Source of the DNA: Candidatus Latescibacterota bacterium
GTDB lineage: Bacteria; Latescibacterota; UBA2968
Length of the DNA stretch: 64,000 nt
Reading direction: 5' to 3'
Assembly (NCBI GenBank): GCA_965262145.1
Contig: OZ253501.1
Span: 3,427,435-3,491,434, forward strand
Numbering within the stretch: the stretch's first letter is position 1; each line of letters starts with the position of its first letter. Shown here one piece after another: positions 5,745 to 28,888 of this stretch. The translations under genes and the position numbers were made by a program. Under the pieces are notes generated by a model. It had not been told where the DNA came from. It was given only the letters and a program-made list of their open reading frames with translations, and did no database searches.

Positions 5745-5765
5745 AAGAACTCCTTTCTATATTCT

Positions 5766-7155: not shown

Positions 7156-7166
7156 AGGATTTAATC

Positions 7167-7982: not shown

Positions 7983-8006
7983 ATTTATGGATTTAGGAGG
8001 ACTCAA

Positions 8007-8687: not shown

Positions 8688-8828
8688 CGCCAGTTGCTCA
8701 ATTGCCGGATCGCCCATTGTGAAACTTTATGTGATGCCAAATCGTCCACAATATCAAACTGAATACAATATTTGGCTCTGATCCCCGTATTTGTTTATAT
8801 TTTCCAAGGATTTTCTTAAGGGGTAGAA

Positions 8829-10562: not shown

Positions 10563-10581
10563 CAACCCAAAAAGGTTTAAA

Positions 10582-12261
10582 ATGGCAATAACCGAAGACA
10601 CACCAACAGATTTTATTCGAGAAATTGTTCGCGAAGACGTAAAAAATGGCAAGCACAAAAAAATCGTAACGCGCTTTCCCCCAGAGCCAAATGGCTATCT
10701 GCACATTGGTCATGCCAAGGCTTTTTGCCTGGGCTTTGGTCTCGCTGAGGAATTTGACGGACAGTGCAATCTCCGGTTTGACGACACCAACCCAGACCGG
10801 GAAGACACCGAATACGTCGAGTCTATCCAGGAAGATTTGAAGTGGATGGGCTTTGATTGGGGCGACGGATTGTACTTTGCCTCCGACTATTTTGATCAAC
10901 TCTACGATTATGCAGTGGAACTCATTCAGCAGGGAAAAGCCTATGTCTGCGACCTGAGTCCACAGGAGATACGCGATTACCGCGGAACAGTGACAGAGCC
11001 GGGAAAAAACAGCCCCTATCGAAATCGCACCGTGTCGGAAAATCTCGACCTATTTGCGCGAATGAAAAACGGAGAATTTCCCGATGGCGCCTGTACATTG
11101 CGTGCAAAAGCCGATATGGCATCGCCAAATATGAATATGCGCGATCCCGTGATGTATCGCATCAAACACACATCACACCATCGCACGGGTGACAAATGGT
11201 GTATTTATCCAATGTACGATTGGGCACACGGACAATCCGACGCCATTGAGCAAGTCACGCATTCGCTGTGTAGCATTGAATTTGCAGAACACCGTCCCCT
11301 TTACGATTGGTATATCCAGCAATTAGAGATTTTTCCCTCGCGGCAAATTGAATTTGCGCGATTGAATATCACCTATACATTGACCAGCAAGCGCATGCTG
11401 ACCCAACTGGTCGAGCGCGATCTCGTAAACGGATGGAACGATCCGCGCATGCCCACACTTTCGGGTATGCGACGGCGCGGGATACCGCCACAAGCCATTA
11501 AGAATTTTATCTGGCGCGTGGGAATGAACCGGCGGGATACAACGGCGGAAATAGATTTGTTTGAATTCTATATTCGCGAGCACCTGAACAAAGTCGCGCC
11601 CAGAGTAATGGGCGTGATCGACCCCTTGAAAGTGGTCATTGAAAACTATCCCGAAGGCGAAGAAGAGATGTTTGAAGCGATGATCAATCCCGAAGACCCC
11701 GATGCCGGCACGCGCCCCGTGCCCTTTTCGCGGGAACTGTACATCGAGCGGGAAGATTTTATGGAAGATCCCCCCCGCAAATTTTACCGTCTTGCACCTG
11801 GACGCGAGGTGCGGTTGCGCGCGGCGTGTTATATCACATGCCAAGAAGCAGTAAAAGATGACGACGGCAACATTATCGAATTGCGCTGTACCTGGGATCC
11901 AGAAAGTCGCGGCGGCACAACACCCGATAAACGCAGGGTGCGATCAACCCTGCACTGGGTATCGGCGAAACACGCATTGAAAGCCGAGGTCCGATTATTT
12001 GATCGGCTGTTCATGACGGAAATCCCAACCCGAACCAAAGATGGAGAGGATTTCACAGACAACTTAAATCCCGACTCACTGGAAGTGCGTCCCACCTGTT
12101 ATGTCGAGCCGAGCCTGGAAGGGGCAGAAGTTGGCCACGTAGTCCAATTCGAACGGCTGGGCTATTTCTGTGTCGATACGGATTCATCAGATGAAAAGCT
12201 CGTATTGAACCGAACAATCACCCTTCGCGACACATGGGCGAGGATGAGAGGGAAGAAGTGA
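10582..12261 (+). CDS. glnS: glutamine--tRNA ligase
   Basis: HIGH motif (YLHIGHAKA), KMSKS-equivalent LTSKR; 559 aa. Confidence 0.9.
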
Positions 12262-12271
12262 GAAATAAGTA

Positions 12272-12352
12272 GGGGACGGTTCCCGTATAAAGGCACTTAC
12301 GGGACAGGCTCCTGTGCCCCCGTATAGAGTCACTACGGGGCAGGCTCCCGTG
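12272..12352 (+). repeat. GTAGGGG-type intergenic repeat (copy 2, with a partial tandem unit)
   Basis: GTAGGGGACGGTTCCCGTATAAAGGCACTTACGGGACAGGCTCCTGTGCCCCC, then ACTACGGGGCAGGCTCCCGTGCG. Matches 5766-5826 in inverted orientation. Confidence 0.55.
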
Positions 12353-12355
12353 CGT

Positions 12356-12384
12356 CATCGCGGCATGATGTTGAGCCGCGATCC
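12356..12384 (-). repeat. REP-like hairpin ATCGCGGC-N10-GCCGCGAT
   Basis: Same family as 38323-38352 and 38952-38982, in the opposite orientation. Confidence 0.5.
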
Positions 12385-12477
12385 AGGAGGTTTTAGCTGA
12401 CTGCTGACTGCTAATTTCCAAAAAGAAAGTTGCCTGTAATCGGCTAAAAATTTATATTTAGCCCTTCGACACAGTAT

Positions 12478-12551
12478 TGCCCCTTCGTCTAATGGCAAGA
12501 CACTGGATTTTGGTTCCAGGTATCGGGGTTCGAATCCCTGAGGGGCAACCA
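12478..12551 (+). tRNA. tRNA-Gln (anticodon UUG), CCA encoded
   Basis: Hand-folded: acceptor TGCCCCT/AGGGGCA, anticodon arm CTGGA-TTTTGGT-TCCAG, T arm CGGGG-TTCGAAT-CCCTG. Confidence 0.9.
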
Positions 12552-12600
12552 ACAATATCTTCTCGCTGAACTTGACCTATCTACTTCATTGTAAAAGAAA

Positions 12601-12635
12601 GCCCGTCAATCGGTGGTGATCGACGGGCTTTTGTT
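12601..12635 (+). terminator. rho-independent terminator after tRNA-Gln
   Basis: GCCCGTCAATCGGTGGTGATCGACGGGC followed by TTTTGTTTG. Confidence 0.65.
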
Positions 12636-12666
12636 TGTACTCGAGGTGAGCAGAGGGGTATAATTA

Positions 12667-12721
12667 CGATAGCAGTTTATCGGCGTCCTGGAGTTACCCC
12701 GCTTTGGTGGAGTATTTAGGG
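12667..12721 (+). repeat. left copy of the island-bounding inverted duplication
   Basis: CGATAGCAGTTTATC-GGCGTCCTG-GAGTTACCCCGCTTTGGTGGAGTATTTAGGG is the reverse complement of 28780-28888, apart from one roughly 45-nt gap and a few mismatches. Confidence 0.8.
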
Positions 12722-12810
12722 CTTGGGTTTCAAGCCTGTGATTGATGCAGCTTTTCATAAGCTATCGGCGCATAGTAGGCGTCTGTTAAACATCGACGGA
12801 CTTTTATTTT
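12690..12810 (+). repeat. island repeat copy R1 (diverged, full length)
   Basis: Left arm GGAGTTACCCCGCTTTGGTGG, then diverged CCTGTG...TTTTCATAAGCTATCGG...GTTAAACATCGACGG, which tracks the consensus. Confidence 0.55.
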
Positions 12811-13253
12811 CTCAATTTCCACCAGTGGGCAGACTTCACGCCAAACCCTTGTCTGCCAAGAAAAACCATCATAAAACGCCCCACAAACCGCTTGGGGAGC
12901 TGGTGACGCCACGCAATTTAAGCAACTCGCGGTGTTGGCACACTATGTTTTATATGGGGTCGTGGTATATTTCTAACTCATTCAAAGGCGTTTGAACATC
13001 AACTCCGTCTGCACACACGCCGCCCTGTCAAGTGCCCGACCGCGCCGCCTGGTTGATCACCACAACCACAACATTTTGTGGATGCAGTTGGCCGTGGCAA
13101 CACAACATCTTGACGCGCCGGAGACATAGCCAGCGACTGAAATCAACAGGTTATCTCATTCAGCTTTTTCTATTTTGATCTGGACAGGTTGTGGTGACTC
13201 AATTTTCACAGGTCTTTTATTTTTTGTCGTGTACTTTGTTTATATCAACTGGG

Positions 13254-14197
13254 TTATCCGTCTGTTGGTGCCTGCGGATAAAAGCCAGAGAGCAGGGTTA
13301 ATTCCATGCCGGTTTGTGGGTCTGTGATTGGGGTGGCATAACTTATCTTGGGCGAGCCAACGGGATCGCCTACCAATTCACCATCCCCATTCTCATCTAC
13401 CGCCGGATTATCAAAATAATACTCGACAAAACCACCACCTGCAGCGGCTGCAGCGATGAGTTCCTGGACAGCTTTGACACCATTGGGGTCTTCAAAGTTA
13501 ATCAGGTTTTGTCCCTCGAGAGCTGAATTGGCTGCGTGAAATAATATGACGCCATCGCTGTTTAAAACTGCGAGGTAGATGGATCCGTGTTTCCACTTTC
13601 CTCCTTCTTGTCTGAATTCTTCTTCGATGTCTTCGGAAAAGGGGAAGCTTTGCGCGTATTTTTTTGCGGTTTCGACAAATGCTTTCAGGGTTTTTTTGTC
13701 CACTACGTCACGAGCCGTGATCTGCTTTGCTGGCTCCAGAGAGTATGAACCCTTCACCTGTGCCTTTCCACCAATGGGCAAATAGAGTATGATCTTATAG
13801 CCTGCGTTAATTGGTATGCTCGACCAGGAACCGATCTCGCTATCATCTTGCAAGGCACGCGCTTGATAATAACCATTTCCCGATGCGATTTCCACCAGCG
13901 TTTGACCTTTTTCATCGGTTGTGCCCGACCATTGATAGTCGGGAGCCTGTCCTGCAATAGAGCGCGAAAATGCGACGGTTGCACCGCTTGCACCGCTTAT
14001 TGGTGTGCCATCACTATGCAATGTGACCATGACCACAGCCTGTGCTTTGTGATGGGCTACTGCCAATTTGCTCAAGGGACGTCCAATCTGTTCCTCTGTT
14101 CCGACTTCCGATTGCATCACACGCTCTCCGCCGCAGTTCCACATCAGCCCTGCGGCGAGAGCTATGACAACGATACTGCGAATGTTTCTCAACATAG
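13254..14197 (-). CDS. secreted lipoprotein with a Cache_2-like sensor domain
   Basis: Start at the ATG at 14197, preceded by GGGAGG. Lipoprotein signal MLRNIRSIVVIALAAGLMWNCGG. C-terminal YLAVLNSDGVILFHAAN...GGGFVEYYFDNP. Confidence 0.6.
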
Positions 14198-14369
14198 CAA
14201 CCTCCCTGGTAAAAAAGCGTTGTCTCACTGCGAATTTGTCGCAAAATAAAAATCATCACGGCGATAACCTCCAAAGCCAGACCAGATAAATCACCAATGG
14301 GTTAAACTCAATCATCTCTTTCTACTGGGTGAGGCATGGGGTTGAAACTTCTACAATATCTCGGTGTGA

Positions 14370-14435
14370 GAAAATATAACGCTGATGCCCAATGTCAATT
14401 AGCCTTTATACCGGTTCAACTATTGGGGCGCACCT
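14370..14435 (-). promoter_or_regulatory. conserved 66-nt promoter-bearing module P1
   Basis: Minus strand has TTGACA (14398-14393), a 16-nt spacer and TATTTT (14376-14371). Differs from 19915-19980 at 4 positions by my count. Confidence 0.5.
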
Positions 14436-14545
14436 CACCCGATTTAATGGATAGTGCATAAGTTCACCCCAGTCATCCTGTGCCATTAGTTTTTCATAGG
14501 TGATGAGTGATTTATGATATGATCCACCAAGACGGGTCAAGTTCA
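14433..14545 (+). repeat. island repeat copy R2
   Basis: Core TTCACCCCAGTCATCCTGTGCCATTAGTTTTTCATAGGTGATGAGTGATTTAT and right arm CACCAAGACGGGTCAAGTTC. Ends 8 nt from the stop codon at 14553-14555. Confidence 0.8.
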
Positions 14546-14552
14546 ACTGTGT

Positions 14553-16223
14553 CTATTCGACAACATCAATCTTACCAAAGTTATCCACAAAGAGCAAAAA
14601 ATCAGGAATCCCTATCACGCCATTCCCGTCCAAATCAAACCTCGCCTCAAATCCCTCTTGCTCTATACTCAATCCGAACACATCCACAAAGAGCAAAAAA
14701 TCGGAAATATCTACGACCCCATTCCCATCAAAATCGCCATACGTTGCAGTGACATCTGTAACGTTAATAGTTACTGTAATTTCATCACTCAAACGAAAAG
14801 GATCAGTAGCAGTAACAACAATATGGTATGAAGTCCTGCTTTCATAATCTAACTCTACACGCGCTCGCACCTCTCCAACTGAAGGGTCCGATACGTGAAA
14901 AGACGTTTCATCTTGTCCACTTAGTTCATAGGTAAGTATCTCGCCATCGTCATCAGTAGCCGTAACCGTAGCCACAACTGCTGAAATATTATTGTTTTCA
15001 GCGACACTCACACTAATACTATTAGATGCAAAAGAGGGTTTGACACTTGGAATAACCCTTAAAATCTTATCTGTTCCAGTTCCAAATGTTGGATCATCCT
15101 CGTTACGAGGCGAAATATGACCCGTTGCAATATACAAGCAACTATCATGACCAATCACAGGTGTACGAAGCCGACCGTATGTATCTTGCAATTGAGGAAT
15201 AATAAACTCACTTAACGAGCCTATTTCGGGGATTTTGTAAAGACGTAATGATTGTGCTTTTAATGTTGCTACCGCCAAGCGACCTTCCCAATCTTTCCAT
15301 GCACTACCTTTAAGAAAAACACAACCACTCGGAGCTATGGTACTATTTCCCGACGACCACTTAGCATCAATAGCACCGGGGAATTTAGTCTTATCCGTCA
15401 TAGACACATTTTTTTCTATATAAGTGGAACCATCGGAAGCAACAGGGTCCCATCCATAATTACCACCGCTTCGCAATAAATTGATTTCATCTTGATGATT
15501 TGGACCATGATCTGCTAACCACATTTCATTTGTGCCAGGTCTCAAAGCCAAACCTTGCGGATTGCGATGCCCAAATGTATAAACAAGAGGATAATCAGAA
15601 TAAGGATTTCCCGTATCACCTTCGCCTGTTTGTGGATTAACACGCAAAACTTTTCCGTTACGTGATGACGTGTCTTGTGGGGCATTTGCTCTAAATGCGT
15701 CACCAGTCGCAATCCACAAATTTCCATTTGGCCCGAAGCGTATGCGACCACCACCATGAGAGCCTTGATTTGCAACGCCTATATTATCTACAAGAGGGTC
15801 AACCACACGAGTAGCCTGCGTATAATCATTATTTATTGTCCACGCAATGACCTGAATTTTTGGTTCAATGTCCTCTGTATCATGACCCTGATAAGTATAA
15901 AAACGCCTATTCGTCTCGAAATTGGGATCAACAGCAATGGACATAAAACCAGTAATTCTTTCGTTAAATAAATCACTAAAATCAGCGTTAACAATCTTTA
16001 CTGTGCCATTTGTCAATCGAGCACTTAGCCTGCCTTGTCGCTCTGTAAATAGCATTGTCCCGTCAGGCGTAAAAGCCATATCCCACGGTGTCGATAATCC
16101 AGTAACTAACTCTTGAATCGTAAGATTAGGCGTATTACTGTCTTGCGCCTGTACATACGTTACAGAATTAAAAAAGAAAAAACATGCACAAAAAAAAGAT
16201 GATGTACTTGAAAATGAAAACAT
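14553..16223 (-). CDS. PQQ-dependent sugar (sorbosone/glucose) dehydrogenase fused to cadherin-like and dockerin-like repeats
   Basis: HGGGRIRFGPNGNLW and FGHRNPQGLA motifs. C-terminal DFDGNGVVDISDFLLFV and DLDGNGVIGIPDFLLFV repeats. N-terminal signal peptide. Confidence 0.75.
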   Translation of the reverse strand: MFSFSSTSSFFCACFFFFNSVTYVQAQDSNTPNLTIQELVTGLSTPWDMAFTPDGTMLFTERQGRLSARLTNGTVKIVNADFSDLFNERITGFMSIAVDPNFETNRRFYTYQGHDTEDIEPKIQVIAWTINNDYTQATRVVDPLVDNIGVANQGSHGGGRIRFGPNGNLWIATGDAFRANAPQDTSSRNGKVLRVNPQTGEGDTGNPYSDYPLVYTFGHRNPQGLALRPGTNEMWLADHGPNHQDEINLLRSGGNYGWDPVASDGSTYIEKNVSMTDKTKFPGAIDAKWSSGNSTIAPSGCVFLKGSAWKDWEGRLAVATLKAQSLRLYKIPEIGSLSEFIIPQLQDTYGRLRTPVIGHDSCLYIATGHISPRNEDDPTFGTGTDKILRVIPSVKPSFASNSISVSVAENNNISAVVATVTATDDDGEILTYELSGQDETSFHVSDPSVGEVRARVELDYESRTSYHIVVTATDPFRLSDEITVTINVTDVTATYGDFDGNGVVDISDFLLFVDVFGLSIEQEGFEARFDLDGNGVIGIPDFLLFVDNFGKIDVVE

Positions 16224-16238
16224 TAAAACTACTCCATA

Positions 16239-16282
16239 GAGTTACCCCGCTTGCGTAGTGGATTTACCCCATTTTAATAGAC
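16239..16282 (+). repeat. island repeat copy R3 (left arm and start of core only)
   Basis: GAGTTACCCCGCTTGCGTAGTGGATTTACCCCATTTT; lies 16 nt upstream of the ATG at 16223. Confidence 0.6.
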
Positions 16283-16287
16283 AGAAA

Positions 16288-16470
16288 CTATTTCAACAGA
16301 ATCATACTACGCGAAAAAAAATCTCCTACAATAAGACGATAAACATATACCCCACTTGCAACCTGACAATACAGATTATCCTTGCCGTCCCACACTACCG
16401 TATAATCCCTTCTGACAAAGTGGTTTCGGCACTATTGTATATAATGCAGACCTGCCAACGTCACGATGCT
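16288..16470 (-). pseudogene. remnant of a FlgD-Ig/T9SS-type C-terminal sorting domain
   Basis: Minus-strand translation YTVVWDGKDNLYCQVASGVYVYRLIVGDFFSRSMILLK*, with an internal stop just upstream and no start codon. Confidence 0.6.
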
Positions 16471-16650
16471 GCCGGTTAAACAATCGTCAAGACCCTGGCC
16501 ACAATGATTCTATACCGTGATGTCCTCCGGCCGCATCCACAACATTTGACAATCTCCCTTTCGATAGTCTCTTTTTGCCTAAATTTTTCATTAACGGCTT
16601 ACACAAATTGTCCACCGTATTGATTGTAAAAGACCATTGTTATGATGTTA

Positions 16651-18936
16651 TTATGCTCCATGCTTTACCGCTCCATGCTTTACCGATGACAAAAACTCAT
16701 CTAATGACCCCAAGGTCGTCGGTACCGCCGCTTCAATATTACTCATAGGAACACATATTCCAAAGCGTCGCTGCGCTCCGCTTCCCTTGTATGGAACCTC
16801 CTGAAGAATTTCTTTGCCGATCATCTTTGGCAAAATTATTTCCATGAATCGGTTAGCATCTCTACCAAACTTCTGTCGGAATACGCCCTCATTGATCTGC
16901 GTTGCTCTCATAAACACCCTGAGTGCACGCTCTGCAAGAAGGGTATTTCCATCTGCTTTAGGTACCGGTTGTCGTTCCGTCAAGCGGTTCTCAATACTCT
17001 CTACTTCAAATCCTGCCGAAATAAGCTCTTCGCGAATCCTTTCGGGATCATATATACTACGCAATTCGTCAGACTGAGTTATGGTTATACCTGAAACCTC
17101 AGTATCTTCAATCAACGTATCTTCCGCCTGAAAGCCCCTCGAGATTTCTAACCGATGTATCGTACACCGTCCAAATTGACATCTACTGATATGCGTGTCC
17201 TCGAGAGATGTCTCTTGAAAGTAACATCCTTCAAATATGACTTTATAAAATCTCCGGCCCTTAAGGGCATCACTAGCAAACGTAAATTCTTTAATGACAA
17301 CTTCCTGATCAACGGGAAGCAACTCAAGCAATCTTATAACCATGGATGCCGCATTCTCCACAACGTAAGATGAGGGAGCACTTGAATTGACCAACGACTG
17401 GAGAATCCGAAGGACTCTACCAAGATCGCCGGCATTCCTCTTTACCATAATTAGTGCCGCATCACATGTTTGCTGTGGCAAAGGACCCTTTTCTAGAAAC
17501 TCAACTATGTCCCTATCATTATTTGCTAGCAACGTAGTACCTAATGCCTCCCCGAGATAAAATTTACGAAAATCTTCGTGGTCAAACGTATACGACTCCT
17601 CATTCTCTGATGTAGAAACAATTAATGAATGTTGCCTGATACGATTGATAATTTGACGTACAATCACTGTTGGTTTGCCGATCTCACTAGCGAATAACTC
17701 TCCAATCAGATCTAGATAGTCTCCTTTAATTACTTCGCTTGAGAATATCCACATCTCCTTTGCCACTAGTGCCAGTAGCGCATGGTGTTCTTCAGTTGTC
17801 AGCAGAGATTGATGGGGTGTACCAGAACGATCTATCCACTTTTCGCGAGCTTCTCGCTCGACAAGCGTATTAACAAACTGAAAGAAGTAGTCTTCAGGAT
17901 TAGTCCCGAGATGGTCAATTAGAGTATCAACATTTCCACCTTGTGCCTCCTCCACTAGCCGTCTTACCAAGACCGCTCGGGTCAGCAAAGGATGATTTGG
18001 TCCTAACCGTGTACGAACTTTATTGTATATCGTTTCTCTATCTGAAAGGTTTCTCCTCTTCGCATAATTAAGAAAACGTTTTCGATCCCACCTATTGAGC
18101 TTAATATTAGCAAAAGAAACTGATCTATCTCGAATAGCATCAAACAGTCTAGCTTGGGTAGCGAAGTTCCTATACTCAAAGTATGCCTTTCTTGCGGCAA
18201 TTAGAGCTGTTCCGGATGAATCGAGAGTGTTCATCAGGTTCCCCAATGCTGATAATGCCTCTCCAGATGATCCCTCAACGAACATCTCTTCAAAGCCATC
18301 GAAAGCGGGAACCAGTACCCCCAGTTTAACTAGTTCCAAGAATGCGTCATAATAAAAAAACTGGAAGCGTAACCTGTTTACGAGTTCTGCAATTACAATA
18401 TCGTCGAATGTCAAGAAGGAACGTCCGCCAAGGCTGATTGGGATCAGTAACCAGTCCGTCTTCTGGTCCTTGTAGAGTTGTGCCTGATTTCGCGCTATCC
18501 AATTGATGAGTGTGGTCTTCCCCTCGCCCGCATCGGAGGTTAAATAGAGAACTGTCGACGTTCCTACTGCCCGGGAAGATAAAAGATCTGGTATTTGGTT
18601 AGAAACATCCTCAACTTTCTTTTCCCTGTCCTCTGGATTGGCATCAATTTGATCTAGTAACATTCCAGAAGGTGATATGAAATGTGGCTCGAAAGGAACA
18701 TTATCTAGTAATCTATCCGCGAGTTGTGGAATTCTAGCTACACGGTTTACCAACCAGGAATACGCACTATTTTTTTTTCCGTTTTCAGTAATAAGCAGAT
18801 TGCCCTTCTCTTGTTCGACAGACACTTCTATGATCTGGTCTCTAATCTGAACTACCAACTCACTACCAGCCATATCTAAATCTGATTCGCTATCAGCGAA
18901 GGCAATCAGAATTTTTTTTAGATCATTGATATTCAT
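16651..18936 (-). CDS. NACHT/STAND-type P-loop NTPase with a pentapeptide-repeat-like C-terminal region
   Basis: Walker A LTSDAGEGKTTL and Walker B LVPAFDGFEEMF. FEGCYFQETSLEDTHISRCQFGRCTIHRLEI repeat-like block. 761 aa. Confidence 0.7.
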   Translation of the reverse strand: MNINDLKKILIAFADSESDLDMAGSELVVQIRDQIIEVSVEQEKGNLLITENGKKNSAYSWLVNRVARIPQLADRLLDNVPFEPHFISPSGMLLDQIDANPEDREKKVEDVSNQIPDLLSSRAVGTSTVLYLTSDAGEGKTTLINWIARNQAQLYKDQKTDWLLIPISLGGRSFLTFDDIVIAELVNRLRFQFFYYDAFLELVKLGVLVPAFDGFEEMFVEGSSGEALSALGNLMNTLDSSGTALIAARKAYFEYRNFATQARLFDAIRDRSVSFANIKLNRWDRKRFLNYAKRRNLSDRETIYNKVRTRLGPNHPLLTRAVLVRRLVEEAQGGNVDTLIDHLGTNPEDYFFQFVNTLVEREAREKWIDRSGTPHQSLLTTEEHHALLALVAKEMWIFSSEVIKGDYLDLIGELFASEIGKPTVIVRQIINRIRQHSLIVSTSENEESYTFDHEDFRKFYLGEALGTTLLANNDRDIVEFLEKGPLPQQTCDAALIMVKRNAGDLGRVLRILQSLVNSSAPSSYVVENAASMVIRLLELLPVDQEVVIKEFTFASDALKGRRFYKVIFEGCYFQETSLEDTHISRCQFGRCTIHRLEISRGFQAEDTLIEDTEVSGITITQSDELRSIYDPERIREELISAGFEVESIENRLTERQPVPKADGNTLLAERALRVFMRATQINEGVFRQKFGRDANRFMEIILPKMIGKEILQEVPYKGSGAQRRFGICVPMSNIEAAVPTTLGSLDEFLSSVKHGAVKHGA

Positions 18937-18948
18937 AAAATCGCCGCC

Positions 18949-19683
18949 TTAAAAAGAATATTGAGAATAATTTTTTCTTACTGTTGAGGAGTAGTAAGTA
19001 GGTGTGCTACGCCCCTTTTGAGGATGAATGTGATGAACAAAAGCTCCTAGAAATATAGCTGTGCGAATTCCCGGCCAAAGGTCATCATCATTGGTGACCA
19101 CGACAATGTCCGATGTGCTCGAAGATGCAGCGTGAATCAAATCGGCCGTAAGCATCGTGTCAACTAGCTTCTGTTCATGTCGAGTAATTACATCAGCGAT
19201 TTTGACCCCACATGATGAATTAGGGCATCTGCCGGTTTGAAGGAGTGTGTGAGCACCAGCGAGCGGACACATAGCGTTTTGAGTACATGCTTGGAACGGA
19301 AATGCCCTAGGGCGAAGGTTGCTAGGTACACCCCTCACTCTATATGTGTTTAAAATATCCTGCGAAGGATCAATCAAAAGGCTCCGGGCCAACTCCACGG
19401 AAAGGAACACTACACGGCGCATATTGGCGGTACCTAAAGAGAGAGTACCCGGGAAGTAACGACTAATTTGGATGCTTAGATCTTGGGCACGTCGCGACAA
19501 TTGACTTGATCTATACCAGCCACCATAAAGACGAACTGCAATATATGTGCCGTGAGGTAACAAGCCTTTAGGGAGCTTTTTCAAAATCGACTTAACTACG
19601 TGATTCAATCCTTTCTGGGGGTCAATATGTGACACGTTGTCATAGTCAATCAGTACATTAATGAGTTTTCTAAGGGTTAACAC
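18949..19683 (-). CDS. NYN (PIN-like) domain nuclease with a Cys-rich insert
   Basis: GTG start preceded by GGAGAA. N-terminal VLIDYDNV, then QKLVDTMLTADL and DIVVVTNDDDLWPGI, typical of NYN/LabA-like folds. CPLAG...CPNSSC insert. Sits 12 nt upstream of the NACHT gene. Confidence 0.6.
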   Translation of the reverse strand: MLTLRKLINVLIDYDNVSHIDPQKGLNHVVKSILKKLPKGLLPHGTYIAVRLYGGWYRSSQLSRRAQDLSIQISRYFPGTLSLGTANMRRVVFLSVELARSLLIDPSQDILNTYRVRGVPSNLRPRAFPFQACTQNAMCPLAGAHTLLQTGRCPNSSCGVKIADVITRHEQKLVDTMLTADLIHAASSSTSDIVVVTNDDDLWPGIRTAIFLGAFVHHIHPQKGRSTPTYYSSTVRKNYSQYSF

Positions 19684-19844
19684 ATCAGTTCTCCGATAGT
19701 CAGACGATTTTTGCTTGGACGTTTAGCACAGGATTGGAAAGGCGTGCCTCATACTTTTGACTGTATCATTACCAGAGAAAATCTCGGCACCACTGTCGGG
19801 AAATTGACGTTCCCTTTGTCCGAGGTCAGAGCTTCTAAAACGAC

Positions 19845-19892
19845 CTAAGACTTGAGTTGCGCGGAGTGGGACTTCTTGGATTTCTGCGGCAC
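19845..19892 (-). CDS. possible 15-aa leader peptide (MPQKSKKSHSAQLKS)
   Basis: GTG start 5 nt after a strong AGGAGGAG. Lies between promoter module P2 and the NYN gene. Confidence 0.2.
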   Translation of the reverse strand: MPQKSKKSHSAQLKS

Positions 19893-19914
19893 GGTATCTC
19901 CTCCTGTTAGCTAA

Positions 19915-19980
19915 GAAAATACCACGCTGATGCCCAATGTCAATTAGCCTTTATAGCGGTTTAACTATTGGGGCGCACCT
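19915..19980 (-). promoter_or_regulatory. conserved 66-nt promoter-bearing module P2
   Basis: Minus strand has TTGACA (19943-19938), a 16-nt spacer and TATTTT (19921-19916). Near-identical to P1. Confidence 0.5.
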
Positions 19981-19981
19981 T

Positions 19982-20097
19982 GGAGTTCCCCCGTTTTCGC
20001 GTATAATGTAGAAGGTTCACCCCAATCATCCTGTGCCATCAATTTTTTATGGATGATTGGGGATTTATACTGTTATACACCAAAACGGGTCAAGTCC
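19982..20097 (+). repeat. island repeat copy R4
   Basis: Arms GGAGTTCCCCCGTTTTCGCG / CACCAAAACGGGTCAAGTCC. Perfect inner inverted repeat CCCCAATCATCC (20020-20031) / GGATGATTGGGG (20051-20062). Confidence 0.85.
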
Positions 20098-20121
20098 AGT
20101 CCATAATCGCACGGCCCGCTA

Positions 20122-21030
20122 CTAAGGGTTAGCCTCTAATGAACAATCCCACCAGTACTTGATGGTTTCAGGAAGCAGTGAAAGATTTTGACGCGCAAAT
20201 TCGATAAGTTCATTCGGGCAGATGGTAGTCACATTCTGAGGTCTATTACACCCGTACTTACCAGACGCTGCAAACAAAAAGACCTGATCCACCTGGACAT
20301 CTTCCCCATATAAAGATGCGTCAATGCATTGGTTCCCGTGTTTCACCTGAACGCCTGCTGATTGAGACTTGCGATTTACCAGTGTCACTTCGTATCGCGG
20401 TGTATTCTCAGCGTGACTGCTCAACACAACGCGCCAGTCCCCATCTTCTTCCAGATACAGAATAACGAGATCCTCAAGGGCGTAGGGATCCAGAAGTTCG
20501 ATGAAGTGTCCTTTCGGGCGAGGTGGCGCATATGCGGGCACGGTCTTATTCGCAAATAGCCAACACGAATAATCCCGTGCATGTTTATCCCAGATACACT
20601 GAAAAGCGGGACCAAACATTGAGAACCGAGCTTTGATGAGACCTGGAACCTCTGTATCGCGGATTGCTGCTGATCCTGACCTCCTACCAATTATGTAGGC
20701 TGATACGACATGACACATGCCGTACTTTTTGGCATCACAGTCCCATCGGGGCTTTGGCTTACTTTTCACACGTCCGAGTAAATAACCGCCTTCCTCGTCT
20801 CGCGTCCATATCAGGTCGTTTTCTTCAACCCTCATAAAGTCACGAACTGCTGGGGGCACTTTGCCATAATACTTGCGTTGATATTCCAGATACTCATCAC
20901 CCCACAGCCCTTTAGCGTCGTCTGGAACGCCCCAACCTAAGCCCAAAATACCTTCTTTTAGACAGTAATGCACAACATCTTTAGAGTCTATGCCCTTCGG
21001 ACGGAGATGAAGTCGCCAGAGTTCCGCCAT
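20122..21030 (-). CDS. putative Mrr-like PD-(D/E)xK restriction-type nuclease with an unknown N-terminal domain
   Basis: C-terminal LEDLVILYLEEDGDWRVV...PRYEVTLVNR...GVQVKHG resembles the Mrr_cat layout (FE.lv, acidic, QxK). AAGGAGG sits before the ATG. Confidence 0.45.
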   Translation of the reverse strand: MAELWRLHLRPKGIDSKDVVHYCLKEGILGLGWGVPDDAKGLWGDEYLEYQRKYYGKVPPAVRDFMRVEENDLIWTRDEEGGYLLGRVKSKPKPRWDCDAKKYGMCHVVSAYIIGRRSGSAAIRDTEVPGLIKARFSMFGPAFQCIWDKHARDYSCWLFANKTVPAYAPPRPKGHFIELLDPYALEDLVILYLEEDGDWRVVLSSHAENTPRYEVTLVNRKSQSAGVQVKHGNQCIDASLYGEDVQVDQVFLFAASGKYGCNRPQNVTTICPNELIEFARQNLSLLPETIKYWWDCSLEANP

Positions 21031-21147
21031 TGATGTACCTCCTTAAAAAGATTCCTACTTCCGAGCGCGTGATTGGCTTTTTGACCGATTCACCCGCTTT
21101 TCCGCTCTATCACTGCTTCAACGAACTGGGCAACCATCCTTCAGGCT

Positions 21148-21263
21148 GGAATTACCCCGTTTGAGTGAATAGTGTAGAAGGTTCACCCCTATCATCCTGT
21201 GCCATCAGTTTTTCATAGGTGATGTATAATTTATAATATTATACATCAAAACGGGTCAAGTCC
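21148..21263 (+). repeat. island repeat copy R5
   Basis: GGAATTACCCCGTTTGAGTG...TTCACCCCTATCATCCTGTGCCATCAGTTTTTCATAGGTGATG...CATCAAAACGGGTCAAGTCC. Confidence 0.85.
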
Positions 21264-21376
21264 ACTTCCCACATCTTTTGTGAGCCTGTTTTTTCTCTCT
21301 GTGCATAATAAGCTGCTCTGGCAAATGGTTCTAAAAGTTTGTCCATGACAATTTTACTCCTTTCTGGTGAATTAAA

Positions 21377-21410
21377 AAAAGACCGTGCTTACCACAAGCA
21401 CGGTCTTTTT
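21377..21410 (-). terminator. hairpin terminator of gene 22884-23150, separated from it by the IS insertion
   Basis: AAAAAAAGACCGTGCTTACCACAAGCACGGTCTTTTT, with U-runs on both strands. Confidence 0.55.
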
Positions 21411-21417
21411 CGTGGAA

Positions 21418-22850
21418 GAGGTTGTGCTTATCTTAGTTGAAATAGTAGAGGCTCCAATGTAAATTGGATACAGCAGATTCAACCGTGAAAACGCTGTGTC
21501 CTCAACCAAAGGAGCCCGTGATGAAAAAAGTATCGCACAAAGCCCCCAAAGTCAAGACAATCCACAAAGACGATAAAACGCCAGAGAGCCCCACAGAAGA
21601 AGAACTGGACGCACTGGATACACGCATCGCGTTGATCCAGGCCTTGATCCCAATAGGATTAGACGCCGTGGCAGAAGAATTGCAGCAGGAAGTGAGCCGC
21701 TTAGCAGGTGATAGATACACTCGCAAAGAGCAACAAAACCCCAATCGTCGGTGGGGCAGTCAACAAGGGTCTGTGTATCTTTCTGATCAAAAAGTGCCTA
21801 TCTCTGTACCGAGGGTACGTAATGTGGAGACGGATGAGGAAGTCTCCCTGGGGGCCTATCATCATCTTCAGGTTCCCAGACGTATGGATGAAGGACTGCT
21901 GCTTCGCGTGATCAAAGGCATTGCGACAAGGTCTTATCACGCCTGTGCACAAGCGATACCCAAAGCCTTTGGGCTGTCCTCATCAACGGTATCGAGACGT
22001 TTTATCAAGGCGTCGGCACAAAAGCTGAAGCAGTTTCGGGAACGCTCTTTAGCGCAGTATGACCTCGTCGCCCTCTTTATAGATGGCAAGACCTTCGCGG
22101 ATCAGGAGATGATCATTGCCCTCGGCGTCACAGTAGAAGGCGAGAAGATCCCAATAGGCTTTGTCCAGGCTGCCACTGAGAACGAGCGTGTCTGTCGGCA
22201 GTTTATACAGTCCCTCATAGAACGCGACATGGTCTATCACAAGGGCCTGCTGTGTCTTATTGATGGCTCAAAAGGGCTGTATGCTGCCCTTACAAAGGCA
22301 TTGGACGGGTATGTAGTCATCCAGCGTTGCCAATGGCATAAGAGGGAGAATGTGCTTTCCTATCTGCCGAAAAATAAACAAGATGAGATCAAAAAGGCAC
22401 TCCAACACGCCTACGACCTGCCCACTTACAAAGAAGCTAAAACTGCTCTCTTATCCCTTAAACCCGAATTGGCCTTGATCAACGAAGACGCGCTAAACAG
22501 CCTTGAAGAAGGTCTTGAAGAAACACTCAGCTTGCATCGTCTGGGACTGATGCCACACTTGAAGCAGTCCTTTCGTACGACCAACTGCATTGAGTCGCTT
22601 AACTCAATGGTGGCACAACTCACCCGAAATGTGAAGCGATGGACAAACTCTAATCAACGCCGTCGCTGGTTAGCCACTGCACTCTTGGACATCCAACCCC
22701 GCTTGCGAAGGGTCAAAGGCTACAAAAGCCTACCCAGGCTCAGGCGCGCTCTGCACAAGAACTTGAAGATAGATACAGACTGGCAAGACGCGATTGCTGC
22801 TGATTGAATCCAACAGCCTCCATTATTTCAACTAAAAATAGGACTTGACC
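21418..22850 (+). mobile_element. IS256-family insertion sequence, intact, with an 8-bp target-site duplication
   Basis: TCGTGGAA occurs at 21410-21417 and 22851-22858. The terminal inverted repeats align without gaps from both ends (TTAGTTGAAATAGTAGAGGCT / TTAGTTGAAATAATGGAGGCT). 1433 bp. Confidence 0.85.
21521..22807 (+). CDS. IS256-family (Mutator-like) transposase
   Basis: Start at the ATG at 21521 after GGAG. Contains VALFIDG, LIDGSKGL and QRCQWHKRENVLSYLPK, all typical of IS256 transposases. Confidence 0.85.
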   Translation: MKKVSHKAPKVKTIHKDDKTPESPTEEELDALDTRIALIQALIPIGLDAVAEELQQEVSRLAGDRYTRKEQQNPNRRWGSQQGSVYLSDQKVPISVPRVRNVETDEEVSLGAYHHLQVPRRMDEGLLLRVIKGIATRSYHACAQAIPKAFGLSSSTVSRRFIKASAQKLKQFRERSLAQYDLVALFIDGKTFADQEMIIALGVTVEGEKIPIGFVQAATENERVCRQFIQSLIERDMVYHKGLLCLIDGSKGLYAALTKALDGYVVIQRCQWHKRENVLSYLPKNKQDEIKKALQHAYDLPTYKEAKTALLSLKPELALINEDALNSLEEGLEETLSLHRLGLMPHLKQSFRTTNCIESLNSMVAQLTRNVKRWTNSNQRRRWLATALLDIQPRLRRVKGYKSLPRLRRALHKNLKIDTDWQDAIAAD

Positions 22851-22883
22851 TCGTGGAATGCACATAAATGACAACCGATGAGA

Positions 22884-23150
22884 TCATGTCAAATTATTGA
22901 TTTTAACCATGCAAATGTAATGCCTCATGGCCGTTCTCTGGTTTCGGATCGTCTTCTCTGGAACCTTTTTCACTTTCAATTTTTCGGAGATGTTTTCTAT
23001 GTCGTCTTGTGATTTAAGTGTTTCAGGGTTTATTGACATAGACAACTCGTTACAGACACGTTTCAAATATGATATATATGACTTTGTTGAGGCTACACTA
23101 ACTCCTTGTGCCCTTATGTATTTGTTATAGAGTTCACAATGTTCAATCAT
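22884..23150 (-). CDS. 88-aa hypothetical protein
   Basis: ORF only. The start codon lies 1 nt from the left arm of repeat R6. Confidence 0.4.
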   Translation of the reverse strand: MIEHCELYNKYIRAQGVSVASTKSYISYLKRVCNELSMSINPETLKSQDDIENISEKLKVKKVPEKTIRNQRTAMRHYICMVKINNLT

Positions 23151-23151
23151 T

Positions 23152-23365
23152 GGAGCTTCCCCGTTTTGGTGGTGTGTTTAAGGCGTTGGTGGCGATTGGT
23201 ATGGTATATAAACTAGCCAGTGAGGCCCAAAAAACAGGCTTCAGACTACGCGGTTACAGGCTCATCCCCTCGTCATTGAGGGGGTGAAGTTCCACAGCCT
23301 GCGCCATCAGTTTTTCATAGGTGATAGGTGATTTATAATGTTATACACCAAAACGGGGCAAGGCC
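23152..23365 (+). repeat. island repeat copy R6 (expanded by about 100 nt of internal sequence)
   Basis: Left arm GGAGCTTCCCCGTTTTGGTGGTGTGTTTAAGG; right half CCATCAGTTTTTCATAGGTGATAGGTGATTTATAATGTTATACACCAAAACGGGGCAAGGCC. Confidence 0.8.
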
Positions 23366-23424
23366 ACTCCAGTTATTTTTAATGGCATTTCAACAACATT
23401 AAAAATTTCGGGTCTTCACAGGAA

Positions 23425-24942
23425 CTAAAAAATATTCTTATCTTCGTCAACTACAATAGTATCGCCAAATATCTTACTTCTAAGACACATTGCAGTAATA
23501 ACTCGCAAATTTTGAATTGGATCGCCGAATTTACGTTGATATTCAACATACTCATTCAAATCTTGAGCTTCAACAGGATCAGGATGCGAAACAAGTTTAT
23601 TTCTTATTTTATACAACAGATTGAGCCTCCTAATTTCCAATTCATTATTACTATCAATTTTTAGTTCCTGAAGGATATTTTTTTTTAATTTTTCGCTACG
23701 ATCATCTTGAAATAATGCACTAAGTGTAGCAAATAGATGCCCATATTCTGTTAGCTGGTCAGTTTCAAACCATGATTTATGATACCACTCTAATGCTTTC
23801 ATCTCCTGAACATCAGATGACTTTTGGGATAACAATTTTGAATCTAAAATTTTCAACCATTTACAATCTTTCTCTGAAATAATTATATTAGTATGAATGG
23901 GTGGAGTTAAAGGTTGAGTAAAACTTTGACTACATACGCCATAATCAAATCTCATAACATCAGATATAACATCAGTTCTCGCTGTAAATGTCTTTCGCCA
24001 CCGATTGTGCAGATTCAAAGATATTGCACCTAATACAATTCTTTTTAAACGATCATGATCTTCAGGCTGGGCTTTTATGCCCAGCCAAGATGCTACCTCA
24101 ACTTTTTGCAGTATAGAGTTCCTATCAAATGTAGGTGGATACAAATTAGGAGCCTCGATTATTGCATCGCTGTCCTTGAGAAATGACCTAATGCCTGGAA
24201 ACAAAGATTTCACAAGAAAAATTTTTCCGCCTTTTGTATAGTAATCATTTTCGACATCTATAGTACTAGAGGGATATATTGACAAAGAAGACCTAAAAAC
24301 TATGCTACACTTTATCGCAAAATAAGTAGATAAAGTTTTCAGCTCCATACCTGACACTTGTTCATAGAAAGAACCCTTGAATGGCATACTCAAAACTGCA
24401 TCCTTGATGAACCAATAGACATGTAGAGAAGGAAAAAAGTCCTGTAAGTATTCTTTAATTATTTCTTCGTGACGCCGTTTTATATAGGGATATGAATTAT
24501 TTTTAAAATGTGATACCGCCTTATTAAAAAGATCAATTTTTGTATAAGTGCGAACACATAAGTCATCCTCTACAAATCTGAAAGGGCCCTCCTGAAATAT
24601 CCCTGTCCCAGTAAAACTAAAGCATTTAGAATCAATATCGTCTGTGTAACAAAATAAAGATTTGAGTAACAATTTGACAGTTTCTAAATGAAACTCCTCA
24701 TAAAAATGTATTCCTTTAGAAGCAGACTCTAAAATCGAATCGTATAAAAGACTCTTAGCCGTTTCAAAAAGATGTGGATTTCTGCCTTCCGTCAAATCTT
24801 CAAAAATGCTACTGGGAACCATCTGAAAGACCCTACGTCCGTTTTCTTCAATTTTCATCATATATTTTCGACCAGATTCATTTTGAAATATACGATTTCC
24901 ATTTATGTCAGGTTCAATCTCACACCAATTTTTGGGTATCAT
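23425..24942 (-). CDS. 505-aa protein with a C-terminal HEPN-like Rx5H motif (Abi/Apea-like candidate)
   Basis: LLYKIRNKLVSHPD near the C-terminus fits the HEPN Rx4-6H motif. AT-rich gene relative to its surroundings. Confidence 0.45.
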   Translation of the reverse strand: MIPKNWCEIEPDINGNRIFQNESGRKYMMKIEENGRRVFQMVPSSIFEDLTEGRNPHLFETAKSLLYDSILESASKGIHFYEEFHLETVKLLLKSLFCYTDDIDSKCFSFTGTGIFQEGPFRFVEDDLCVRTYTKIDLFNKAVSHFKNNSYPYIKRRHEEIIKEYLQDFFPSLHVYWFIKDAVLSMPFKGSFYEQVSGMELKTLSTYFAIKCSIVFRSSLSIYPSSTIDVENDYYTKGGKIFLVKSLFPGIRSFLKDSDAIIEAPNLYPPTFDRNSILQKVEVASWLGIKAQPEDHDRLKRIVLGAISLNLHNRWRKTFTARTDVISDVMRFDYGVCSQSFTQPLTPPIHTNIIISEKDCKWLKILDSKLLSQKSSDVQEMKALEWYHKSWFETDQLTEYGHLFATLSALFQDDRSEKLKKNILQELKIDSNNELEIRRLNLLYKIRNKLVSHPDPVEAQDLNEYVEYQRKFGDPIQNLRVITAMCLRSKIFGDTIVVDEDKNIF

Positions 24943-25133
24943 GATAAACCCCCGTCCCTTTGGTTACTGTGGTACATAATGCTTTTTTTTGAACACCCTA
25001 TTCTCGAATCGTCAAACCTGTGCCGTTTGTCGGGCTTGATTCCAATATACAGATCACCGTATCACCTTCTTTCCTGTTGGATGTTAGAGAAGACAGGTAA
25101 AGGGCGGTTCTATGAAAACCGCCCGTTAAGCAA

Positions 25134-25162
25134 AATATATCCAACAGCGTCCAGACTGACAA
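25134..25162 (-). promoter_or_regulatory. candidate sigma70 promoter for the HEPN-motif gene
   Basis: Minus strand has TTGTCA (25162-25157), a 17-nt spacer and TATATT (25139-25134). The hairpin GGGCGGTTTTCATAGAACCGCCC follows. Confidence 0.4.
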
Positions 25163-25184
25163 CCGTATTTTTGACTTGTATGCG

Positions 25185-25285
25185 GGATGACTCCGTTTTA
25201 GTGGATAGCGTAGAAGGTTCACCCCAATCATCCTGTGCCATCTTTTCATAGGTGATAAGTATATCCACCAAAACGGGGCAAGTCC
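25185..25285 (+). repeat. island repeat copy R7
   Basis: GGATGACTCCGTTTTAGTGGATAGCGTAGAAGGTTCACCCCAATCATCCTGTGCCATC...CACCAAAACGGGGCAAGTCC. Confidence 0.85.
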
Positions 25286-25287
25286 AG

Positions 25288-25454
25288 TTGGACATTGAAC
25301 CCCGCCTGCGAAGGATCAAAGGCTTCCGAAGTCTGCCCAGGCTCAGACTCGCGTTGCAGAAGGACTTGAAACTCGATACGGACTGGCAAGACGCGCTTGC
25401 TGCTGATTGAACCGACTGGCCTCTTATTATTTCAACTAAAAATAGGACTTGACC
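25288..25454 (+). mobile_element. 3'-terminal remnant of a second, diverged IS256-family copy
   Basis: Aligns with 22685-22850 of the intact IS (transposase C-terminus plus right inverted repeat ...AAAATAGGACTTGACC). Abuts repeat R7. Confidence 0.8.
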
Positions 25455-25594
25455 GGAGGGACCCGCCGGGGCACTAAAGTTGATAGTTGCATACAGAGTT
25501 GCCTTTTATCTATGGTTGCTTTGAAACCACACACCACGTAATATAAAGAATAAATCCGCAACTGCGTAACATCAGTTAAATAGGAGATTTCGAT

Positions 25595-26698: not shown

Positions 26699-26701
26699 TT
26701 G

Positions 26702-26790
26702 GATTTGCCCCGGTTTAGTGAACAGTGCAGAAGGTTCACCCCAATCATCCTGTACTATTAGTTTTTCATAGGTGATAGGTGATTTATACC
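26702..26790 (+). repeat. island repeat copy R8 (right arm missing)
   Basis: GGATTTGCCCCGGTTTAGTGAACAGTGCAGAAGGTTCACCCCAATCATCCTGTACTATTAGTTTTTCATAGGTGATAGGTGATTTATAC; starts 4 nt after the stop at 26698. Confidence 0.8.
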
Positions 26791-26818
26791 TCAGCTTATG
26801 GATCGCAGTCCATTTTAT

Positions 26819-27190
26819 TCAGCTATCAATTCTTGATAGCGTAACCTGCTCATAGCAGGCACTTTGGTCGCTTTGGTCTGGATATTGCCCCTCGATCATT
26901 TGCCAAAATTTCCTTCTTTGTCTCTCCTTGCTTTGAAGCTGGAGTAACGGCTGCAACCGATAGACAGATAGGAAACTTAGTCTTGGGTCTGAGTCATCTA
27001 TCTTCAAGATAAAATCTTTAATTTCTTCATCCAGTTTGAGCAACTGTAGAATCAAGTGGATTTTGGGTTGCGAAATGCCCACCTGTTTCGCAAGTGCTCT
27101 CTGAGATTGAACGTGGCCCTTTTTAAGAAGTTCGTGATAATATAAGGCTCTTTTGATATAATTGGGATGTAGCAATTTTCGAGTAACCAA
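26819..27190 (-). CDS. ParB/KorB-like HTH DNA-binding protein, possibly N-terminally truncated
   Basis: RALAKQVGISQPKIHLILQLLKLDEEIKDFI. TTG start. The frame stays open without an ATG up to about 27316, and a neighbouring frame holds ORF 27220-27405. Confidence 0.45.
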   Translation of the reverse strand: MVTRKLLHPNYIKRALYYHELLKKGHVQSQRALAKQVGISQPKIHLILQLLKLDEEIKDFILKIDDSDPRLSFLSVYRLQPLLQLQSKERQRRKFWQMIEGQYPDQSDQSACYEQVTLSRIDS

Positions 27191-28882: not shown

Positions 28883-28888
28883 CTATCG
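28780..28888 (-). repeat. right copy of the island-bounding inverted duplication
   Basis: The reverse complement CGATAGCAGTTCATC...TATCGGCTTCCTCAGCTAGAGTTACCCCGTTTTAGTGGAGTATTTAGGG matches 12667-12721. Confidence 0.8.

Follow-up and report, generated by a model that had tools for sequence, protein, structure and literature searches.

bNACHT proteins defend bacteria against phage and can carry pentapeptide sensors; what defines the NACHT subclade is its Walker B motif, D[GAS]hDE (Kibby et al., bioRxiv 10.1101/2022.07.19.500537). A 2026 survey of signal transduction ATPases with numerous domains (STAND) covers 589 clades; according to its main text (Lee et al., PMC13581612), sensors shorter than 400 aa were left out of the clustering. 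HEC-03, which needs both of its genes, combines an ABC ATPase with a PIN nuclease, and HEC-09 is a MARF1-like NYN candidate with conserved Asp residues that was proposed to be a defence RNase (Payne et al.). Here we describe a two-gene locus in a stretch of 64,000 nucleotides from Candidatus Latescibacterota bacterium (contig OZ253501.1, positions 3,427,435 to 3,491,434; hereafter, the window), in which a predicted NYN-like nuclease gene is followed by a gene for a NACHT-type STAND NTPase. With moderate confidence, we read the pair as a self-contained conflict system directed against phages or other mobile elements and built like a nucleotide-binding leucine-rich repeat receptor (NLR), a function that we infer from genomic context.

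In silico, the pair unites an intact NACHT switch, a fast-diverging C-terminal half, and an obligate, coupled NYN-like partner with an intact acidic site. The two genes are co-inherited and move as one cassette, and the contexts in which they are found are mobile and defence-rich. The genes are laid out as follows.

18949–19683, minus strand: gene 1, NYN/LabA-like predicted metal-dependent nuclease, 244 aa, GTG start (open reading frame (ORF), Pfam NYN, BFVD match, structure model)
16651–18936, minus strand: gene 2, NACHT-type STAND NTPase, 761 aa, ATG start (ORF, structure model, Foldseek)

A GGAG ribosome-binding site sits 7 nt upstream of the GTG of gene 1, and the junction between the genes reads TAA-GGCGGCGATTTT-ATG. 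The ORF list places both frames on the minus strand with a gap of 12 nt, exactly where a preliminary description of this DNA had put them, and the peptides quoted there (VLIDYDNV, DIVVVTNDDDLWPGI, GEGKTT, and LVPAFDGFEEMF) are each found in the translations, by which the motif coordinates of both genes were also checked. The NTPase has at least 1,324 homologs at E ≤ 1e-3. For the small protein, 467 homologs were found directly, and a profile search of a library of 1.84 billion proteins recovered 1,414 representatives (50% clustering), of which 342 reach E ≤ 1e-30. Because homologs are so numerous, both ORFs are real genes rather than chance frames.

Two records bear on gene calling in this family. 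A 445-aa protein on another ENA contig (P0021) covers 55% of the window NTPase at 100% identity, therefore a truncated or split call of this sequence exists in public data. In a nanopore-derived contig (L087, 6776–9027), the NTPase frame is split near residues 46–48 into two tblastn segments in different frames, reflecting either an assembly error or a pseudogene.

The linkage of the two genes was profiled in 80 loci from reference genomes. The NYN-like gene lies directly upstream of the NTPase gene in 78 of them, and on the same strand in 77 of these. All four testable IMG/VR viral contigs keep the arrangement, and a reciprocal look-up from three divergent NYN homologs found the NTPase directly downstream each time (3/3). 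The linkage is close to absolute across phyla, in line with the separate upstream NYN gene of the preliminary description. The median intergenic gap is 9 nt, and an overlap occurs in 16 of the 62 pairs, measuring 4 nt in nine; we regard genes 1 and 2 as translationally coupled. No third conserved gene was detected across the 80 loci, the next commonest neighbour family being present in 12, and the NYN family never occurred without the NTPase in the loci examined.

Of the two exceptions, one locus (L044) is cut off by a contig end, and the other, in a Cloacimonetes metagenome-assembled genome (MAG; L063), truly has no NYN gene and is the only complete locus with the NTPase alone. In the latter (6465–10253), an opposite-strand ORF upstream of the NTPase (6465–7421) has a HxHxDH metallo-beta-lactamase-type motif and could either stand in as the effector or be unrelated to the NTPase. 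The only locus with an opposite-strand NYN-like gene comes from a Longimicrobiales MAG (L005, 7037–7747), where the arrangement is divergent with a 254-nt spacer.

The NTPase is divided into the following parts, all encoded on the minus strand.

18562–18936, minus strand: N-terminal domain, residues 1–125, conserved, acidic, alpha/beta, of no known family (alignment, model, charge)
18052–18561, minus strand: NACHT nucleotide-binding domain (NBD), residues 126–295 (alignment)
18514–18528, minus strand: Walker A, GEGKT
18286–18300, minus strand: Walker B, DGFEE
18190–18192, minus strand: sensor-1 residue R249
17317–18051, minus strand: helical/winged-helix part of the NACHT module, residues 296–540 (alignment, model, Foldseek)
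17578–17586, minus strand: invariant F451-D-H453 motif (alignment)
17047–17316, minus strand: predicted pentapeptide-repeat beta-helix, residues ~545–628 (profiles, pentad count, charge)
16654–17046, minus strand: C-terminal alpha/beta domain, residues 631–761, of no known family (Pfam, profile search, model)

Residue conservation in the NTPase was assessed in an alignment of 28 homologs, which are 44–89% identical to the window protein. The Walker A motif reads S-D-A-G137-E-G-K140-T141, with G137, E138, G139, K140, and T141 invariant and Ser134 standing where the classical motif has its first Gly. The Walker B motif P210-A-F-D213-G-F-E216-E217 is likewise invariant, with E-E in place of D-E, and its D-G-F-E-E fits the D[GAS]hDE signature of the NACHT subclade. 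R249 and F451-D-H453 are also invariant, and the motif of the predicted winged-helix domain (WHD) reads FDHxxF; we take FDH (451–453) to be the NLR-type WHD His motif.

An AlphaFold model of the NTPase, built on the 28-homolog alignment (mean pLDDT 84), was compared with the PDB by Foldseek. Animal NLR chains fill the whole of ranks 1–39 (E 5.4e-12 to 6e-7), headed by autoinhibited NLRC4 (4kxf, E 5.4e-12, ~700 aligned columns) and followed by NLRP3, NOD2, NAIP5, and other NLRP chains, and ORC/Cdc6 chains rank below the NLRs. At the level of sequence profiles the subclade is ambiguous. nSTAND_NTPase5 matches 7 of the 28 family members (best E 2.5e-4), nSTAND3 reaches a sub-threshold 13.2 bits on the window NTPase, and a search of the NTPase profile against the sequences of solved structures returned pentapeptide-repeat proteins only, with the NTPase core unmatched. 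We accept gene 2 as encoding a NACHT-type STAND NTPase because its predicted structure and its motifs support this assignment, not on account of the Pfam score.

The domains of the NTPase diverge at very different rates. The NBD is the best conserved (68% mean pairwise identity) and the pentapeptide block the most divergent (33%). The family profile of this block matches MfpA (2bm4, E 1.8e-7) as well as Qnr and McbG-like proteins (E 1.8e-7 to 4e-5), and Pentapeptide_4 matches 26 of the 28 members (best E 3.8e-7), the window NTPase alone scoring 21 bits against a cut-off of 38. Thirteen consecutive pentads with a hydrophobic centre residue make up about three coils, and short beta-strands span residues 546–628 in the model. 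The block is predicted to be the sensor, since its divergence is as expected under diversifying pressure. Its net charge is -6 per 100 aa and that of the N-terminal domain is equally acidic, so a net-charge test for DNA mimicry of the block did not discriminate. The preliminary description had read the NTPase as a NACHT/STAND protein with a helical middle region, a pentapeptide-repeat-like block, and an unassigned C-terminal domain, and this outline agrees at each point with the motifs, fold matches, and profiles given here.

The predicted NYN motifs and the four-Cys insert of the small protein are placed as follows.

19636–19647, minus strand: NYN motif 1, D13-Y-D-N16, at the end of strand 1 (alignment, translation)
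19210–19287, minus strand: four-Cys insert (C133, C139, C153, C158) between the core strands and the catalytic helix (alignment, model)
19141–19161, minus strand: NYN motif 2, QKLVD175-TMLTA-D181, within the Pfam NYN-matched residues 156–207
19081–19089, minus strand: NYN motif 3, D199-D200-D201 (alignment, translation)

D13, N16, D175, D181, D199, and D201 are invariant in the family, and D15 and D200 are at least 90% conserved. We assume that this acidic set maps onto the three NYN motifs (DxxN; KxVD..D; DxD), with a metal site at the strand ends, and its invariance argues for catalysis. C133, C139, and C158 are also invariant and C153 is at least 90% conserved, which bears out the Cys-rich insert reported earlier; as judged from its sequence, the insert is a putative zinc ribbon-like element. 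Pfam NYN (PF01936) is the sole family match, found in 21 of the 28 members at E ≤ 0.01 (best E 4.1e-7), and several homologs have precomputed PF01936 matches or the JGI name 'LabA/DUF88 family protein'. Compared with viral structures in BFVD, the AlphaFold model (pLDDT 85) has a LabA-like/DUF88 protein at rank 1 (E 5.9e-3, prob 1.00, TM 0.55) and an NYN domain protein at rank 4 (prob 0.90). The only PADLOC model matched is HEC-09 (E 0.01, residues 85–208; all defence-model comparisons used PADLOC-DB v2.0.0). The profile does not spread beyond its 1,414 representatives into the wider NYN superfamily, and the small protein is probably a member of a clade of NYN/LabA-like proteins that is tight and divergent.

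The two proteins co-diverge (r 0.73–0.84). In a mirror-tree analysis with the other domains controlled for, the partial r against NYN was 0.33 for the NBD, 0.26 for the N-terminal domain, 0.12 for the C-terminal domain, and 0.10 for the pentapeptide block, and the ranking was NBD > N-terminal > helical > C-terminal > pentapeptide, the pairs being non-independent and the ranking carrying no p-value. This is weak evidence that the NYN protein contacts the N-terminal side of the NTPase, whose N-terminal domain (residues 1–125) is a candidate adaptor.

A sequence of events can be proposed for this arrangement. At rest, the NACHT protein would be an autoinhibited monomer with its C-terminal half folded onto the NBD-WHD, as in autoinhibited NLRC4. 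A phage protein would bind the pentapeptide or C-terminal sensor and lift the autoinhibition, and nucleotide exchange at K140 would then allow the NACHT protein to oligomerise. The clustered N-terminal/NBD side could recruit and activate the NYN protein, which would cleave RNA in a metal-dependent manner, and the RNA cleavage would lead to growth arrest or aborted infection.

The family is rare and patchy. A pattern-based survey of 185,579 species genomes, which for that reason sets a lower bound, confirmed at least 153 stretches with the pair, scattered across 14 or more phyla. The taxa include Latescibacterota, Acidobacteriota, Gemmatimonadota, Alpha-, Beta- and Gammaproteobacteria, Bacteroidota, Planctomycetota, Verrucomicrobiota, Spirochaetota, Desulfobacterota, Myxococcota, Binatia, Cloacimonadota, and others. 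One Vicinamibacterales MAG (OZ241843) has two copies of the pair 2.5 Mb apart (L018 and L019).

In the window, the pair lies within a 16.5-kb island (12600–29100) between tRNA genes at 12478–12548 (plus strand) and 29111–29184 (minus strand). The island is an array of mostly minus-strand cassettes with a palindromic repeat of ~120 nt between them. The repeats and the upstream elements of the pair are as follows.

19981–20098, minus strand: palindromic inter-cassette repeat copy of ~118 nt, the upstream boundary of the pair
16239–16266, minus strand: arm-only repeat copy (repeat family D5), the downstream boundary of the pair cassette
14428–14545, 21147–21264, 23249–23366 (partial), 25184–25286, and 26700–26817: further palindromic repeat copies
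12691–12718 and 23153–23180: further arm-only repeat copies
28777–28813: inverted repeat copy
19684–19816, minus strand: leader that moves with the cassette; L001 and L002 keep it alongside the pair (blastn)
19914–19980, minus strand: 67-nt repeat, 94% identical to 14369–14435, holding the best promoter-like site (consensus match only)

The window DNA is ~92% identical to that of another Latescibacterota MAG (L001), which has the same repeats and flanks around an island of ~9 kb with other cassettes; the only common block is 16573–19816 (blastn, 92%). In L002, the block 16503–19817 (blastn, 91%) stands directly against the tRNA-side flank. The pair is therefore one cassette in a hypervariable tRNA-flanked hotspot, and both this comparison and the repeat copies that bound the pair agree with the repeat-delimited cassette proposed in the preliminary description. 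The conserved promoter module proposed with it amounts to consensus matches only, namely a TTGACA-16-TATTTT site with a TG extension (19916–19943) and a TTGACC-N17-TATAAA site within the palindromic repeat, and a scan returned 8 promoter-like sites against 8.4 expected by chance, with terminator counts likewise at chance level. The 67-nt repeats at 19914–19980 and 14369–14435 sit upstream of the NYN-NACHT cassette and of a Cache cassette, respectively. Near the former, a strong ribosome-binding site precedes a 15-codon ORF (19845–19892, minus strand; MPQKSKKSHSAQLKS), which is absent from the other copy of the 67-nt repeat.

One copy of the palindromic repeat folds at -49 kcal/mol (z = -5.7), and the repeat-bounded array may be an undescribed cassette-shuffling element. 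An integron/attC reading was rejected, as the arms (CCCGTTTTGGTG ... CGAAAACGGGG) have the wrong order and consensus compared with RYYYAAC/GTTRRRY, and there is no IntI. The island ORFs compared with Pfam gave no tyrosine recombinase, apart from an 88-aa ORF (22884–23150, minus strand) that weakly matches the SAM-like domain at the N terminus of phage integrases (E 2.2e-4) and may be either what is left of a recombinase or a small protein that binds DNA. An element inserted in the array (21424–22844) encodes an IS256/Mutator-family transposase (21464–22807, plus strand; Pfam E 1.6e-32) between 30-nt terminal inverted repeats, and a partial copy of its right end lies at 25288–25454 (82–100% identical).

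Defence-related genes recur around the pair. In the window, the adjoining cassette (20122–21030, minus strand) encodes a 302-aa protein with no Pfam domain, whose full length is covered by a match to the PADLOC candidate PDC-S02 (E 1.7e-60), and in L001 the pair neighbours a GmrSD/HEC-06-like gene (E 1.8e-60). The defence-type neighbours across the loci include ThsB, AriA, mad3, NsnA, PD-T4-2, SoFic, PDC-S01, GmrSD, and restriction-modification methylases. AbiEii and ParE-like genes flank the pair in L088, and the remaining immediate neighbours at other loci are ordinary metabolic genes. In an IMG/VR viral genome (L084, UViG 2511231013_000001, 5141–18229), the pair is within a prophage, with an integrase fragment on one side, genes for an Rz-like spanin, endolysin, tail, and tape-measure proteins on the other, and adjoining DNA methyltransferases, a position typical of a moron or defence gene.

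A number of results weigh against reading the pair as an NLR-like conflict system. The window's own two proteins score below every Pfam curated cut-off; for NACHT (PF05729) the NTPase reaches 13.7 bits against 26.7 (E 0.058), and for NYN the small protein reaches 21.7 bits against 24.2 (E 3.2e-4). The fold evidence for the NYN assignment is marginal. The small-protein model has no significant PDB match by Foldseek (best E 1.5e-2, generic alpha/beta Rossmann-like), and its profile retrieved nothing from PDB sequences even at E 10. Thus the earlier NYN claim stands at the level of the family, through the Pfam and BFVD matches, whereas for the window protein itself it falls short of the cut-off and of any significant solved-structure match. 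No PADLOC model, bNACHT models included, was matched by the NTPase at E ≤ 1; together with a literature in which we found no name for this pairing, this accords with the earlier remark that it is not a recognised named system. HEC-09, the only standalone NYN candidate tested, protected against none of the phages tried. No NYN-NTPase fusion was seen in the 150 best NYN representatives (longest 403 aa) or among the 120 best NTPase matches, therefore a physical interaction of the two proteins is purely inferred. Homologs of the NTPase were absent from PLSDB plasmids and INPHARED phages. About a dozen of 66 immediate neighbours matched defence-type models, a raw count compared with no control set and drawn from immediately flanking proteins with the longest excluded, which may bias it. 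The island is not purely defence, because it also holds a Cache-domain protein (13254–14228, minus strand) and a secreted-looking glucose/sorbosone dehydrogenase (GSDH) fused to cadherin and dockerin-like domains (14553–16223, minus strand), both non-defence cassettes.

The order and coupling of the genes also suit a different logic, in which the NYN protein is a constitutively active toxin held inactive by the NACHT protein until a trigger or loss of the operon frees it. The release would resemble that of AriB by AriA in PARIS, and the pair may mainly be an addiction module that stabilises the island. PIN-like nucleases are classic toxins of toxin-antitoxin modules, with VapC as a comparison, and here the nuclease gene comes first and is translationally coupled to a larger protein. 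The strict co-inheritance and co-divergence, the AbiEii and ParE-like neighbours in L088, and the location in a mobile cassette array all point the same way. However, a 761-aa NACHT protein with intact Walker A and B motifs and a fast-evolving sensor goes far beyond the needs of an antitoxin, known NACHT/STAND systems are activated by oligomerisation rather than release, and the NTPase-alone locus L063 is unpredicted by a toxin-first model. We consider this sequestration possible but rather doubtful.

A housekeeping or regulatory pair for RNA metabolism, i.e., a LabA/NYN-type RNase under an NTP-dependent switch with no role in conflict, is improbable. LabA/NYN proteins do have non-immune roles, several neighbours of the pair are ordinary metabolic genes, and no validated defence model in PADLOC is matched. 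Many STAND clades also have no defence association (391 of 589 in the main text of Lee et al. 2026, PMC13581612). A housekeeping function fits poorly, however, with so few confirmed stretches scattered over so many phyla, with two copies in one genome (L018/L019), with variable flanks and a cassette in a hypervariable hotspot, with carriage by a prophage (L084), and with roughly one-fifth of the immediate neighbours being of defence type.

Reversed roles, with the pentapeptide beta-helix as a DNA-mimic effector on gyrase or another DNA enzyme and the NYN-like protein as a nucleic-acid sensor, an accessory, or a DNA cutter, are about as improbable: the closest solved relatives of the repeat block are indeed the gyrase-binding MfpA, Qnr, and McbG-like proteins, the block is acidic, and PIN-like folds include DNA flap nucleases, but the block has ~3 coils as against ~8 in MfpA/Qnr, its acidity is unspecific and equalled by the N-terminal domain, the fastest-evolving domain suits a sensor rather than an effector against a conserved host enzyme, C-terminal repeats of NACHT proteins are sensors, and the acidic residues that never vary in the NYN-like protein speak for a catalytic role.

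The NLR-like conflict system that we favour has a more specific form, which we consider unlikely, in which the short, acidic beta-helix would be an integrated DNA-mimic decoy and a phage DNA-binding or DNA-processing protein that grabs the mimic would switch on the separately encoded NYN RNase, by analogy with the integrated decoys of plant NLRs. If that were true, a bacterial NLR and NYN RNA decay would place two arms of eukaryotic innate immunity, i.e., NLR sensing and KHNYN/N4BP1-type RNases, in one operon. NYN RNases (KHNYN, N4BP1, MARF1) serve antiviral RNA decay in eukaryotes, and NYN fusions to death-fold/TRADD-N immune adaptors have been noted in invertebrates; a coupling of these two arms into a single sensor-effector pair is not known from eukaryotes.

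If confirmed, three aspects of the NLR-like conflict system would be new, i.e., an NYN RNase as the effector in bacterial NLR-like immunity, delivery of an effector with a gene of its own through an N-terminal adaptor domain not described before, and a compact pentapeptide beta-helix as the sensor, where studies to date have dealt with TPR, LRR, and WD40 arrays. With so small a sensor, identifying the trigger and solving the structure should be practical. NACHT-plus-NYN coupling would likewise offer a useful comparison for antiviral RNA decay in eukaryotes. The family comprises more than 1,300 clusters at 90% identity, mainly from poorly studied soil and sediment phyla beyond current defence catalogues.

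Among the described systems, bNACHT shares with the pair's NTPase a central NACHT with a D[GAS]hDE Walker B, a winged helix, and the order N-terminal domain, NACHT, and C-terminal repeat sensor. However, the bNACHT effector is a fused N-terminal domain, NYN is not in the effector classes listed by Kibby et al. (bioRxiv 10.1101/2022.07.19.500537), and the N- and C-terminal domains of the pair's NTPase match no named NACHT-associated domain. Avs/AVAST, like the pair, join a STAND NTPase sensor to a nuclease output; as presented in the main text of Lee et al. (PMC13581612), Avs recognise conserved phage proteins and are found in defence islands and prophages, and their sensors are mostly large TPR-like arrays (400 aa or more) to which the effectors are fused, whereas the pair has ~220 aa after the NACHT, with a beta-helix, and a separate nuclease. 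Both 'NYN' and 'pentapeptide' are absent from that main text, and the clade of the pair may be listed without a name in the tables of the same study.

HEC-09, whose match to the small protein is marginal, consists of one gene that lies within Hma systems and whose product has an HTH-like domain at its N terminus, in contrast to the Cys4 insert and the obligate NACHT partner of the pair family. MfpA, Qnr, and McbG-like/AlbG proteins have a right-handed quadrilateral beta-helix with an acidic surface, as does the pair's repeat block, but they are standalone dimers of ~190–220 aa that act on gyrase, whereas the few coils of the pair are embedded in a NACHT protein. Animal NLRs (NLRC4 and NLRP3) are the best structural matches of the NTPase, a likeness only, with orthology undemonstrated. 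HEC-03 and PARIS (AriA/AriB) share the two-gene layout, as both have a large NTPase and a separate small nuclease (PIN-like and Toprim, respectively), but their ATPases are ABC/SMC-like rather than STAND/NACHT and have no sequence relationship to that of the pair, and the nuclease of HEC-03 is a VapC-like PIN rather than an NYN. Given that NTPase sensors with separate nucleases are already known from HEC-03 and PARIS, we conclude that the pair is a credible variant of bacterial NLR-like immunity with a separate NYN effector, rather than a new principle.

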